The notes under the pieces were generated by a model that was not told the origin of the DNA, did not search any database, and saw nothing but the letters and a program-made list of their open reading frames with translations. 64,000 nucleotides of DNA. Source: Saccostrea cucullata. Lineage: Eukaryota. Both the position numbers and the translations under genes were made by a program. The DNA lies in contig NW_026929962.1 of NCBI RefSeq assembly GCF_032062105.1, positions 744,001 through 808,000 on the forward strand, in the 5' to 3' direction. This document shows, one piece after another, positions 3,301 to 42,839 of the stretch; within the stretch, counting starts at the first letter, position 1; each line of letters starts with the position of its first letter.

Positions 3301-6300
3301 CACAAATTATTTTATATTATTTAAAGCAATAAGAAGTTAGATCTGGTGTTATTATATTTTTATGCAGGGGGGGGGGGGGCTGGGAGGTTTCAAGACTGTG
3401 GAGGTTCGCATTCATGAGTCAGATCCTATGTATATCACAGAGTGAAACATCAAATATTTACAAAGTACATATATAATCAGTGTTACTTTATAATAGTTTT
3501 ACCCGGTACTTTCTATTTTCGCTTCATTAGCGATTTACAATCCCCATTGAAATCAAGAGATATAAGCAGTGAACCATGATAGAATATATCAGATTCCCTC
3601 TTCAAAATGATGGGTACAATAATTTCCTATGACAATGCATATAATTTAATTGTTGATGTCTCTCCATCTCCATTTTTCAAATATTTTTGAATTTTGTTTC
3701 ATCCTATAATCGTACACGATAGCAGATACATGGTACATAAGCTTCCCAAGTGAAGTGAAGATTCATTAGAATTCCCGCCCCCGCCAAGTTACTAGTAATT
3801 TAAAAACACCTTTTTCTGACTTCTTCTCGAAAATATTCATATATCTATATGGATATAATTTCATATCTATTTCTTCAAATCGACAATACTATACTGACAT
3901 GAATAAATATTTTGTTTATATCGATGTTTGAAAATTAGTATAATATTTCAGTCGATAAAAGTTAAAGCAATAAAATCTATTGAACAAAAGAAGTTGCCTT
4001 CAATTATGTAAATACACCTCAATACAATTCAAAATATGGGCATAAATAAGGAGGTATAATACTTTATATGTTGATAAGTCGATAAAATATATAAGACAAT
4101 ATACAAAGTTATAACACAACAAGTGTAGAGCCATTTGAGCTTCCGTATTTGTCTATGTTTTGTCTATATCTTATCAAAATTATTGTGATGCACTTAGATA
4201 TCATAAAGTAACATTTACTGATAATTTCAGTTTAGTGCGCCCAATACTTTTCGAGAAAAACGCTTTGTTGACGATTTTACCGGACATCCCTCGTATATAT
4301 AGTTTACTCCGGAATCAAGTTTGACCTAGGCCTTACAGGAAAGTACGAAAGACGAATAGGGCCACATAAAAAAATATTTTTATCTCGTAATTACGAGAAA
4401 AGATCTCGTAATAACGAGGAAAGATCTCGTTATTACGAGTTAATTATCTCGTAATTACGAGAAAAGATCTCGTAATTACGAGAAAAGATCTCGTTATTAC
4501 GAGTTAATTATCTCGTTATCACGAGAAAAGATCTCGTTATTACGAGTTAATTATCTCGAAATTAAGATTTAATTATCTCGTTATAACGAGAAAAGATCTC
4601 GTTATTACGAGTTAATTATCTCGTTATAACGAGAAAAGATCTCGTTATTACGAGTTAATTATCTCGTTATAACGAGAAAAGATCTCGTTATTACGAGTTA
4701 ATTATCTCGAAATTACGAGTTAATTATCTCGTTATAACGAGAAAAGATCTCGTTATTACGAGTTAATTATCTCGTAATAACGAGAAAAGATCTCGTTATT
4801 ACGAGTTAATTATATCGTTATAACGAGAAAAGATCTCGTTATTACGAGAAAAGATCTATAAAATATATATATATATATATATATATATAGCCCTCGGTGT
4901 TTAGCCAAAACACACTAATGCACCATTTATGTTCTAAGCTTAAATGACTGACATCTAGAAGTTATAAGATTATAATAGATCTTTAGAATATCAAAACGTA
5001 TAATAATCCTATATGAGACTTTTTGAAGAAGCTATGACGTAGCATTACACAAATTTTCGGTCTTAAGGCAGTTAAACAATATTCATCTAGTTAATTCAAA
5101 TAGGTGAAAAAATTCAATTAGTACTGTCAAAACATACACTGTACATGTACATGTAAATAACTTCAAAAAGTATATATGTAAAGAAGATGGTGGATAAGGC
5201 GGACAAAGTGCCTAAAGTTCGACAGATAAGAAGTGAAAAAATTAATCTCAATTAAATCAAAATTTTATTTGATATTTCGCAATAACGAGATCTTTTCTCG
5301 TAATTACGAGATAATTAACTCGTTATAACGAGATCTTTTCTCGTTATAACGAGATCTTTTCTCGTTATTACGAGATCTTTTCTCGTAATTACGAGATAAT
5401 TAACCCGTTATAACGAGATCTTTTCTCGTTATTACGAGATCTTTTCTCGTTATTACGAGATCTTTTCTCGTAATTACGAGATAATTAACTCGTAATAACG
5501 AGATAATTAACTCGTAATTACGAGATCTTTTCTCGTAATAACGAGATCTTTTCTCGTAATTACGAGATCTTTTCTCGTAATAACGAGATAATTATCTCGT
5601 AATAACGAGATCTTTTCTCGTAATTACGAGATCTTTTCTCGTAATAACGAGATAATTATCTCGTAATTACGAGAAAAGATCTCGTAATTACGAGATAAAA
5701 ATATTTTTTTATGTGGCCCTATTCGTCTTTCGTAGGAAAGATTTGCACAGTAATGGAAGAATTTTAATCGTGTAACTTTTCCTCTTTTTCTTGTTTGTTT
5801 GTTTGCTTGTTTTGTTTGTTAAAAACTATCAATTTTTTTTAAAGCGATTACTATTGAAGATAAAATTGAAATTGAAATATTTTTCAATCTACTATATAGG
5901 TATATTGTACCTAAAAATTGTATCTTAAAAGCATCATCTGGATAAAAACTTTTAATTGTAGGTGAGCGTTTTGGCCTTCCACTCAAATATCACTTTCGCC
6001 AGATCGGTCTCCCATCGACACGAGGCAGAGATGGAAAGGTTCTTTTCACAGGAATTAGGATCTCAACACCAATGTCGTGCTGATTTTATTCCAGCTCTCC
6101 AGTGTCCTGCTACAACACACGAACAGTCGCCATTTTACGACAACGAATTTCTAGGAAAGCGCTCCACGTGTCCCTGGATTATGTGCCGAGATTCGGACTC
6201 ACTTCGTCAACCACGTGACATTTATTATGCCAAGTGCTTGTGTACGGGATGCAAAGGACAGTCAGGCGAATACTCTTGTCAATCAATATATACATCTATG

Positions 6301-6384
6301 GTTGTTTCCAGGTTAACTAGAAGAGATTACCATGAGAGTATAATTCGTGTTCCCGTGGGATGTACTTGCGCTAAAAACAGGTAG
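387..6384 (+). CDS. IL17: Interleukin-17 family cytokine, 2 exons (387-413 proposed; 5962-6384), about 149 aa
   Basis: Exon 2 carries the IL-17 cystine-knot pattern RSTCPW...RQPRDIYYAKCLCTGC...CQSIY...VPVGCTCA and follows the acceptor ttttaattgtag. Exon 1 (ATG..ATG|gtaaga, MISKILRLM) joins in phase 0 to give a signal-peptide-like MISKILRLMVSVLAFHSNITFA. The family call is strong; exon 1 is inferred. Confidence 0.85.
985..1534. mobile_element. Fold-back MITE with TAG...CTA ends (Academ-like termini)
   Basis: Long imperfect TIR (tagttcgacatatatggcgttttccaggc / gcctggaaaacgtcagatatttcggacta) extending over 100 bp. TSD unresolved. Confidence 0.6.
1549..4293. mobile_element. Non-autonomous Tc1/mariner-type element (copy 1), interrupted by two insertions
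   Basis: TA flanks; TIR CGAAGGTTGACCGGTAAAATCGT / ACGATTTTACCGGACATCCCTCG; colinear with the copy at 14738-15788. Confidence 0.85.
2516..4147. mobile_element. IS3EU-like fold-back element, about 550-bp TIRs, 6-bp TSD TTTGTC
   Basis: Ends TACGGAAG...CTTCCGTA; TTTGTC at 2510-2515 and 4148-4153; absent from the sister mariner copy. Confidence 0.8.
4344..5734. mobile_element. IS3EU-like non-autonomous element with inverted 21/22-bp minisatellite arms, 6-bp TSD GGAAAG
   Basis: TIR TACGAAAGACGAATAGGGCCACATAAAAAAATATTTT; GGAAAG at 4338-4343 and 5735-5740; unit tctcgtaattacgagaaaaga. Confidence 0.85.
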
Positions 6385-40748: not shown

Positions 40749-41116
40749 ATATTCACTGATCGTCCATATTCTTTCTTCGCCGTATCGGTATGGACGGCGG
40801 GATGAGTATATAGTATATAGACTTTAATACGAAACTAACAAATATTTTCGAAAAAATCCTTCGTAACTTTATTTAAAAAAAGCACCCTACAATAAAGCAA
40901 ACAGGCTCAATCACAAAATCAACATACCCCGCTGCAAAACCTACGACAGCCGATGAAAAAAGCGAAAGTCTTACTAAATTGACCCTAAATGGCGCGTATA
41001 GTTAGTTACATAGCTAGATAAATGCACGTTCTGTAATTAAGCTTATTATTAATTTGTAGTCTCTTAATTTGCAATACTTCTGATTTAAACCTTCACGTCT
41101 TTTTAACACTATCCCG

Positions 41117-42839
41117 TATGGGGCGCCGTTTTAATATTTTTAATGTATTTTCTGATATCAAAAAATCATTTTGTGATATCAGAAATTCGATTTTTTGATA
41201 TCAAAAAATCATTTTCTGATATCAGATAATGTATTTTTTGATATCAGAAAATAAACAAGATTTTTTGATATAAAAAATTCGAATTTTTAATATCAAAAAT
41301 TCGAATTTTTAATATCATTTTTGATATCAAGGATTCGAATTTCTGATATCAAGAAATCATTTTCTGATATCAAAAAATCGATTTTCTGATATCAGAAAAT
41401 GATTTTTTGATATCAGAAATTCACATTGATTTCTTGATATCACAAAATATATTTTTTGATATCAGAAAATAAAATAAAATGACGAAGAATCTTCACATAA
41501 ATAATGAATACTCCCTTGTTTTTAAAAAAAAACTGCCGAACTTCGGTGCCAGATTTGCTTTCTACTAAAATTTGTTAAATTAAATAAGATTTTTAATAAT
41601 ATTTTTTTAATGGAAGAATTTAATAAGTGTTTTTGATATTTTTGGTCATATTTATTTGCATGGAATTCAAATATATTACTTTTTAGTTTTTTGGGGATAA
41701 ATCCGAGTAAATAATCCATGTTTCATTGTTTGGGGATCGGGTTCGGGCTACAGCAAATGTTTAGAAAACGCATTCGTAACTACTCGGCCATTTTCCGAAA
41801 GAGAAATAACGTTCACGGAAATGGCCAAGTAGTTACGATTGTTAGAAAACGGTGTGTATTCGTTCAGAGACATATAAAAGATTTCTTATATGTCTCTGAT
41901 TCGTTAACCACATGTCCAGACATTAAAGTGTAAAACAGAAAGAAATCGTTGTTTATCGGCAACAATCTAGATGCGCTGTAGGTCGGGCTTAGACTGAGAA
42001 TTTCTCTGTAACCCCTATCAACAGCAGCCATTAGCTTTTCCAATTGCATATTTCATTATTTGTCAATATGTAAAGTGATGTAACATTAGAGCTGACCAGC
42101 AAGTACTCGTTGTGTGGTATTCAAGGTGAAGGCGGAGTTATCCGTTAAGTTTGTGCTTAAGTTGTGTGTGCACAATGAATACTTAAAATATAGTCAATAG
42201 TGCAAAAGAACGACGGCATCCTTATAACAAGACAGGTCTTAAACGTATTAGAATCCTGTACAAAAGACGACGGCATTCATGTCCTTAACTTGTTTGAACC
42301 CAACAAAGTTCGCAACAATTTGGCGGGAAGCTGAAAGTTCATAACGGGGATCATTCATTAAATCGATCGTAATTTTACTTGGTTCTTATTTTCTGATATC
42401 AAAAAATCGATTTTGTGATATCAGAAAATACTAATCACTTTTTGATATCAGAAAATGATTTTCTGATATCAAAAATTAGAATTCTTGATATCAAAAAATG
42501 ATTTTCTGATATCAGAAATTCGATTTTTTGATATCAAAAAATCTTGTTTATTTTCTGATTTCAAAAAATCGAATTATTTATATCAGAAAATAAACTAGAT
42601 TTCTTGATATCAAAAATCGAATTTCTGATATCAGAAAATGATTTTTTGATATCAAGAATTCAAATTTTTGATATCAGAAAATCATTTTCTGATATCAAAA
42701 AATCTATTTTTTGATATCAAGAATTATTTTTTGATATCAAAAAAATATTTTTTGATATCAAGAATTCGAATTATTGATATCAATAATTTCTTTTTTGATA
42801 TCAGAAAATACCTCAAAAATATTAGAACGGCGCCTCATA
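41117..42839. mobile_element. IS3EU-like non-autonomous element with 21/22-bp GATATC-centred arrays, 6-bp TSD ATCCCG
   Basis: TATGGGGCGCCGTTTTAATATTTT...AAAATATTAGAACGGCGCCTCATA; ATCCCG at 41111-41116 and 42840-42845. Confidence 0.87.
41771..41841. mobile_element. 71-bp hairpin element with 10-bp TSD
   Basis: CATTCGTAACTACTCGGCCATTT...AAATGGCCAAGTAGTTACGATTG flanked by TTAGAAAACG on both sides. Confidence 0.8.

Follow-up and report, generated by a model that had tools for sequence, protein, structure and literature searches.

Tandem arrays of units about two helical turns long occupy both arms of IS3EU/GingerRoot transposons in the oyster Saccostrea cucullata, and such arrays accompany the transposase gene in most of the lineages sampled here. 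In a 64,000-bp stretch of contig NW_026929962.1 (the window; positions 744,001 to 808,000 of assembly GCF_032062105.1), elements A, B and C (Table 1) are multi-copy non-autonomous IS3EU/GingerRoot transposons with inverted 21–21.5-bp arrays in both arms. Arrays appear to be widespread in animal IS3EU, with a period that is modal and not fixed. The IS3EU superfamily, foldback-type arms (as in the element Tm1) and repeated end sites in bacterial transposons are already known.

Inverted arrays in three non-autonomous elements

IS3EU/GingerRoot is defined by TA..TA termini and a 6-bp target-site duplication (TSD) in the available parts of PMC10045372, PMC12730594 and PMC6839031, and the elements described here share both features; an rva_4 DDE transposase is common to the superfamily and to the transposase-bearing relatives described below. 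The termini of A, B and C all conform to TAY..RTA and each element lies between perfect 6-bp duplications, a single such match being expected by chance at ~4e-4, in agreement with the superfamily assignment made in an earlier note on the window. When the window was scanned de novo for TAY..RTA ends flanked by 6-bp duplications, these three elements were recovered along with a fourth, D, which the earlier note had missed; it lies 200 bp from A and contains ATCGA-like motifs dispersed at irregular spacing. Exact tip matches in the assembly number 136 for A (69 + 67) and 290 for B (153 + 137), and tip-pattern matches number 51 for C (22 + 29) and 131 for D (67 + 64), counts that are inflated because the assembly (1.17 Gb) appears to contain both haplotypes (near-identical flanks, 12–16 kb). 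TSDs were perfect over 6 bp in 28 of 36 paired-end rows of A, B, C and D, and matched at five or more of the six positions in 31, three of the A rows being probably one repeated insertion.

The window elements were checked by Tandem Repeats Finder (TRF), an inverted-repeat search and direct reading. Core-to-core steps in A are 21 or 22 bp, with 42–44 bp at degenerate cores, and those in B are exactly 21 bp in 32 of 33 cases, the remaining step being a 46-bp inversion junction; C has steps of 20–22 bp plus three of 27 bp, one of 49 bp and one of 83 bp, at which the phase is broken. The arms of all three elements are mutually inverted, such that asymmetric motifs change strand between arms. Self-complementarity of the family consensus exceeded that of shuffled sequences in A (P = 0.0075), B (P = 0.044) and C (P = 0.0055); together with the steps, the TRF calls and the TSDs, this confirms the palindromic ~21–22-bp arrays that the earlier note had described. 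That note had also placed the arrays directly inside the terminal inverted repeat (TIR): they are indeed present at both ends, but they begin 30–50 bp in, behind a tip of ~20 bp followed by an A/T linker, and form part of the long TIR. A strict phase between tip and array was considered and rejected, as the offsets vary by family (TRF starts 22–69). The 29 complete copies of A, B and C have 4–47 cores per arm, with at least four cores on either side of the largest gap in every copy; a long TIR built of tandem units whose number varies per arm is the arrangement of foldback-type elements.

Table 1 Elements, arrays and second-gene loci
Feature	Position	Strand	Description
Element A	4344..5734	none	Non-autonomous IS3EU-type, TACG..CGTA, perfect 55-bp terminal inverted match
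A TSD GGAAAG	4338-4343 + 5735-5740		Perfect 6 bp
A left array	4382..4857	+	21/22-bp units, core TCTCGTWAYWACGAG, two alternative linkers; TRF period 21/43
A right array	5273..5696	-	Inverted relative to left array; TRF 21/43
Element B	28229..29081	none	Non-autonomous; internal deletion giving a pure foldback, arms join at 28798/28799
B TSD ATTATT	28223-28228 + 29082-29087		Perfect 6 bp
B arrays	28278..29038	none	Exact 21-bp unit; ~24 left, 10-11 right; TRF 21, 36 copies
Element C	41117..42839	none	Non-autonomous, TATG..CATA
C TSD ATCCCG	41111-41116 + 42840-42845		Perfect 6 bp
C left array	41147..41470	+	Palindromic TTTTTGATATCAAAAA units, 21/22 bp, occasional 27-bp steps; TRF 21/22/43
C right array	42388..42809	-	TRF 21/22/43
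Element D	2516..4147	none	IS3EU-type TAC..GTA, 6-bp TSD TTTGTC, imperfect 266-bp TIR at 82%
Second (HECT) gene	L173:647-2785, L176:5119-7230, L137:881-1192, L142:228-737; 19 metagenome loci among L333-L412		

Arrays on transposase-bearing relatives

Long copies of A, B and C (2–6 kb) yielded no transposase open reading frame (ORF). Relatives were selected by a Pfam rva_4 match and not by arrays: rva_4 gave 99 matches in the 150 scored of 248 candidates, and 45 fetched loci together with L107 represent 24 lineages. An array lies upstream of the transposase gene in 17 of the 24, with a period of 20.5–23 bp or a 42/84-bp multiple and with units that differ by lineage, and the absence of arrays from autonomous elements, which the earlier note had set against its own proposal, is thus not what these lineages display. 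In two of the 17 (C7146 and C10065) the tip is missing in the copy itself and the array was linked via a unit that adjoins a tip elsewhere; five further loci (C12388, C173, C20583, C16260 and C19261) are uninformative, neither tip nor array being seen in the fetched DNA. Arrays occupy both arms of six elements, from three lineages, that are complete, contain a transposase gene and are flanked by 6-bp TSDs, and arrays on transposase-bearing relatives occur in both deep clades. Because several complete elements are deleted or frameshifted, we describe them as transposase-bearing, which is safer than active.

The window families are connected to this set in part. The tip and array of B precede a truncated rva_4 ORF at L322, and A2 (L325), a relative of A, has an rva_4 core that by eye is nearly letter-for-letter that of Repbase IS3EU-1_CGi, as is the K5 core with respect to IS3EU-3_CGi; an exact transposase partner of A or C was not found among the 150 candidates scored and the 45 loci fetched. 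An array-blind de novo scan returned six elements beyond A, B and C, two with a strong and three with a weak signal at 20–21 bp and one with none.

At C14289 (L169–L170, L331) the transposase gene of one element is interrupted by a non-autonomous copy of the same family, which is flanked by a 6-bp TSD of its own, and IS3EU-in-IS3EU nesting was seen at C12163 too. L121 (C12388 region, 5514–6405) is a pure foldback of unassigned superfamily, with 21.5-bp arrays head to head and degenerate termini. Four family-I tips (L181, L198, L201 and L204), each with at most one unit and with a common inner sequence and similar flanks, are probably a truncated end amplified within another repeat.

A modal period with diverse units

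The best period fell at 20–21.5 bp in 23 of 28 end types and at 11 bp (half of 22) in one, while four had no such peak; the end types were partly picked from array-bearing families, z-values are inflated by the homology of the ends, and the final scoring used a comb score above 0.09 and not z. Free variation of the period among families, the other outcome that the earlier note had set against itself, was not observed, but it is partly true that other periods occur (8, 12, 23 and 24 bp). A 21-bp frame without indels was found in K8 left b (14 units, 53% neighbour identity), K3 (16 units, 68%) and K9 (20 units, 51%, partly as an 84-bp higher-order repeat). Variation is focused on linker or centre positions, and sub-blocks within units are conserved. 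The conserved period that had been claimed is thus better described as a strong mode near two helical turns whose frame survives 51–68% identity, but which is not fixed: families I (20.5 bp) and I2 (23 bp) have a common unit core, with the transposases of I and C10065 as sisters (100/99), and 16 of the 38 metagenome arrays described below fall outside 19–21.5 bp. The companion claim, that period rather than sequence is conserved, proved half right, because units differ widely but related families have common cores (CATTATATG in the K clade and TCGT-N4-ACGA in A, A2, G and J). As a general rule palindromy failed: it was significant in 10 of 24 end types, compared with 1 of 27 control arrays, and in none of the seven K-clade end types, and palindromic units were found in 7 of the 38 metagenome arrays.

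Comparison elements and other sources

Both-end arrays near 21 bp were found in 1 of 45 other TIR candidates, and the termini of that one are ambiguous. The candidates came from 600 kb of unselected DNA, the window and flanks, with ten IS3EU duplicates or chimeras removed from an initial 55 rows, and not all of them are validated transposons.

Metagenome loci with related transposases (80 loci in 68 clusters, 58 of them evaluable after the exclusion of ten with <150 bp upstream) had an upstream array within 1.5 kb in 38 of 58 clusters (42 kb examined), often directly behind a TACG tip; the first 1.5 kb downstream (57 kb) had an array in four loci. The short-read contigs of these sequences break at arrays. 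Periods were 19–21.5 bp in 22 of the 38 arrays (three as dimers), and two complete elements with 6-bp TSDs have units of 20 bp (L381) or 8 bp (L347) in both arms. Fungal IS3EU ends have the same tips, with TACGGAAGCCC common to these and the oyster elements, and dispersed motifs.

Transposase, convergent gene and known systems

Two AlphaFold models of the transposase (mean pLDDT 90 and 89) have helical helix-turn-helix (HTH)-like domains before the DDE core, and Pfam HTH and rva_4 matches in the transposases likewise predict an N-terminal HTH followed by an integrase-like core. The top Foldseek matches were IS21 IstA, Tn7 TnsB and MuA, mixed with retroviral integrases. The K-clade transposases (L096:949–1128, L092 and L313) have an N-terminal SAM-like domain of five confident helices, and Pfam SAM_1 and SAM_2 were matched in 23 and 21 of 104 homologues, respectively. 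The units of this SAM-bearing clade are non-palindromic.

Many IS3EU elements contain a convergent second gene (Table 1) whose product ends in a HECT domain (Pfam E = 3e-7 and 6e-9), the C-terminal motif retaining a cysteine; in K-clade elements it also begins with a SAM domain. Of the 32 metagenome loci with sufficient sequence downstream, 17 contain a match to the HECT gene, in every case on the opposite strand, and the unselected blocks contain none. The Repbase name IS3EU-1_CGi_2p suggests that the second protein had already been annotated by curators; a literature search returned no paper combining 'IS3EU' and 'HECT'.

Long composite TIRs with variable tandem units also characterize Drosophila FB and Galileo, foldback-type elements of other superfamilies (P). 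Tm1, in the available text of PMC3169594, resembles the elements described here in having long composite TIRs in which the number of tandem units per arm varies, but it belongs to the Mutator superfamily and has a 9-bp TSD and a 14-bp unit. In the accessible literature foldback-type elements are described family by family, whereas the modal period reported here is superfamily-wide.

IS3EU was placed alongside IS481/IS1202 with low support in a published tree (PMC10045372, available part), and repeated end sites are reported in the accessible sections on Tn7 (22 bp; PMC9308760), IS21 (23-bp spacing, two repeats required; PMC10122671) and the IS1202 family (an extra 19-bp end site; PMC10132070). 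IS21 IstA, Tn7 TnsB, MuA and IS1202 offer the closest folds, an HTH before an integrase-like core and end sites of ~19–23 bp. As far as these partial sources go, the bacterial ends contain two to four sites, often asymmetric, whereas here 4–69 units are arranged head to tail in mirror-symmetric arms.

The structure of IS3EU is described as largely unexplored in the part of PMC11934779 available. Subterminal tandem arrays are not described for IS3EU in the accessible portions of PMC10045372 (no matches to 'tandem' or 'palindrom'), PMC12730594 and PMC6839031 ('tandem' in one reference title only), and those of PMC4255032, PMC5844308, PMC10853768, PMC4455052 and PMC11136912 make no mention of end arrays. 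A full-text literature search, covering sources other than Repbase reports and subscription journals, returned no description of superfamily-wide 20–21-bp IS3EU end arrays in the text available, and Repbase may mention arrays.

Proposed amplified binding sites and alternatives

We consider the chances about even that the units are binding sites, amplified through tandem duplication, for the two-HTH DDE transposase of the respective family. About two helical turns would be covered by a single protomer, or by a dimer where units are palindromic, and this would set the modal period; few sites may be required for end pairing, and the surplus, a possible by-product of slippage or unequal exchange, would be tolerated because whole-unit changes preserve the frame. 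We favour this reading because the nearest folds are those of bacterial enzymes that read repeated end sites. Also in its favour are the position of arrays upstream of the transposase in 17 of 24 lineages and 38 of 58 metagenome clusters, the period mode, the rarity of such arrays in other TIR candidates, the frame kept at low identity, the focus of variation on linkers and centres, and the unit core common to the sister transposases I and C10065.

Several observations weigh against it, the main ones being the mismatch between units and tips, the array-less family D and the off-mode periods. Inner sites of Tn7, IS21 and IS1202 repeat the end site in the portions available of the sources above, whereas the units described here are unlike the tip: the mean best match of units to their own tip was 9.8/21 and to other tips 9.5/21 (permutation P = 0.08, 24 end types), such that units are not supported as copies of the terminal site, and tips are near-identical (15–19/20) in B, F, G, H and I alongside unrelated units (9–12/21). 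Unit similarity was weakly correlated with transposase identity (Mantel r = 0.22, P = 0.054; r = 0.07 outside the K clade). D is a counter-example within the window, with no tandem array by TRF and no cryptic 21-bp period (best 13.75, score 0.051 versus null 0.043); its family has multiplied (131 tip matches) without an array and has a transposase partner, the D tip preceding rva_4 ORFs in C1309 and C3776, and the lineages of D and E2 both have a tip and no array. Metagenome periods outside the mode (8, 11–12, 15 or 23–32.5 bp in 16/38) and the lack of long arrays in fungal IS3EU consensus ends (first 400 bases of 15 of 27 entries, by eye) point the same way, as do an indel-to-substitution ratio not clearly below that of control arrays (0.11 versus 0.15, P = 0.08) and a structural match driven mainly by the catalytic core.

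A neutral origin is possible though unlikely. In this explanation only the 20-bp tip matters, and a duplicated subterminal stretch has been amplified and homogenized between arms, the modal length reflecting a mutational bias or an ancestral spacing. It accommodates the range of copy number from 4 to 69, the lack of arrays in family D and at fungal ends, the turnover of units next to conserved tips, an indel ratio not significantly under that of controls and the tolerance of 27-bp steps in family C. However, it leaves unexplained why other TIR elements of the same DNA lack arrays (1/45), why the two deep clades and DNA from other sources have the period mode in common, and why the frame persists at ~50% identity.

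We regard as doubtful a more elaborate form of the amplified-site reading, in which animal IS3EU transposases would polymerize along both arms like beads on a string, as in Tn7 and IS21 end recognition but in a eukaryote and over tens of sites. The SAM-bearing K clade would then assemble head to tail on non-palindromic units and other clades would dimerize on palindromes, with the SAM–HECT ubiquitin ligase of the element as a possible regulator.

It is distinctly unlikely that the arrays are read instead by a host factor or by the second protein of the element, or that they have an autoregulatory or promoter role. Units that do not resemble tips and the recurrence of the convergent SAM/HECT gene would fit such a role, as would the position of both convergent genes just inside an array (in G and F the transposase ORF starts ~30–85 bp past the array, and in C4038 the second ORF starts ~120 bp inside the right array), but both arrays are kept in gene-less copies, a DNA-binding domain was not detected in the second protein, and one host factor is unlikely to accept dozens of unrelated units. 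As for the sequence-independent bent-DNA scaffold of the earlier note, or a nucleosome-positioning equivalent, we find it very unlikely and it fails as a general rule: A-tract phasing, measured as a simple vector sum devised here and not by a calibrated curvature model, is strong in A and B (98th and 100th background percentile), with C at the 94th, but any A-tract-containing 21-bp repeat is automatically phased, and only 12 of 28 end types reach at least the 95th percentile, with G at zero and H, K8 right and M1 below the median.

A published satellite and the use of the arrays

CgiSat43 of C. gigas was published as satellite DNA, with 3145 monomers on all 10 linkage groups and no Repbase match, and the available part of that paper (PMC8268682) draws no link to IS3EU ends. 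The end unit of K6 is matched by the 21-bp monomer of this satellite, with two exact matches in L228 (1274–1457) and 14 matches (at most two mismatches) upstream of the rva_4 ORF in L107 (321–700), and the assembly contains 160 matches to a related 31-base pattern, many in convergent clusters. At least one published oyster 'satellite' is thereby reassigned to transposon ends, which identifies a source of the dispersed 20–21-bp minisatellites and of the long foldback repeats seen in animal genomes and upholds the earlier suggestion of a route for minisatellite dispersal. A reading of CgiSat47 (129 bp, annotated IS3EU) as 6 × 21.5 bp was rejected, as no such subunits were seen by eye.

The arrays also give a little-studied superfamily a structural signature by which non-autonomous copies can be recognized and assigned. 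With more than a dozen natural pairs of transposase and unit, including sisters that differ in period or have no array, both the recognition code of a eukaryotic IS21/Tn7-like transposase and the part played by site spacing become directly testable.

Other features of the window

An ORF at 5962–6384 (+), ~230 bp past A, resembles by eye an IL-17-type cystine-knot exon. Two long single-exon ORFs (11006–12325 and 23674–24945, +) resemble Cys-loop (nicotinic-type) receptor subunits, and fragmented ORFs at ~13300–20500 (−) and 58100–62400 (+) are BEL/Pao-like and Gypsy-like long terminal repeat retrotransposon remnants, all by eye. A Harbinger-like element at 49945–54412, with transposase and Myb-like ORFs by eye, has nested in it a 709-bp element with a 9-bp TSD (53652–54360). 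Other tandem repeats comprise a 47-bp array of 44 copies (30833–32868), outside any TAY element, and 161–166-bp arrays at 8391–9156, 21431–21932 and 22289–22808, which match the common oyster Helitron-linked satellite in size only.

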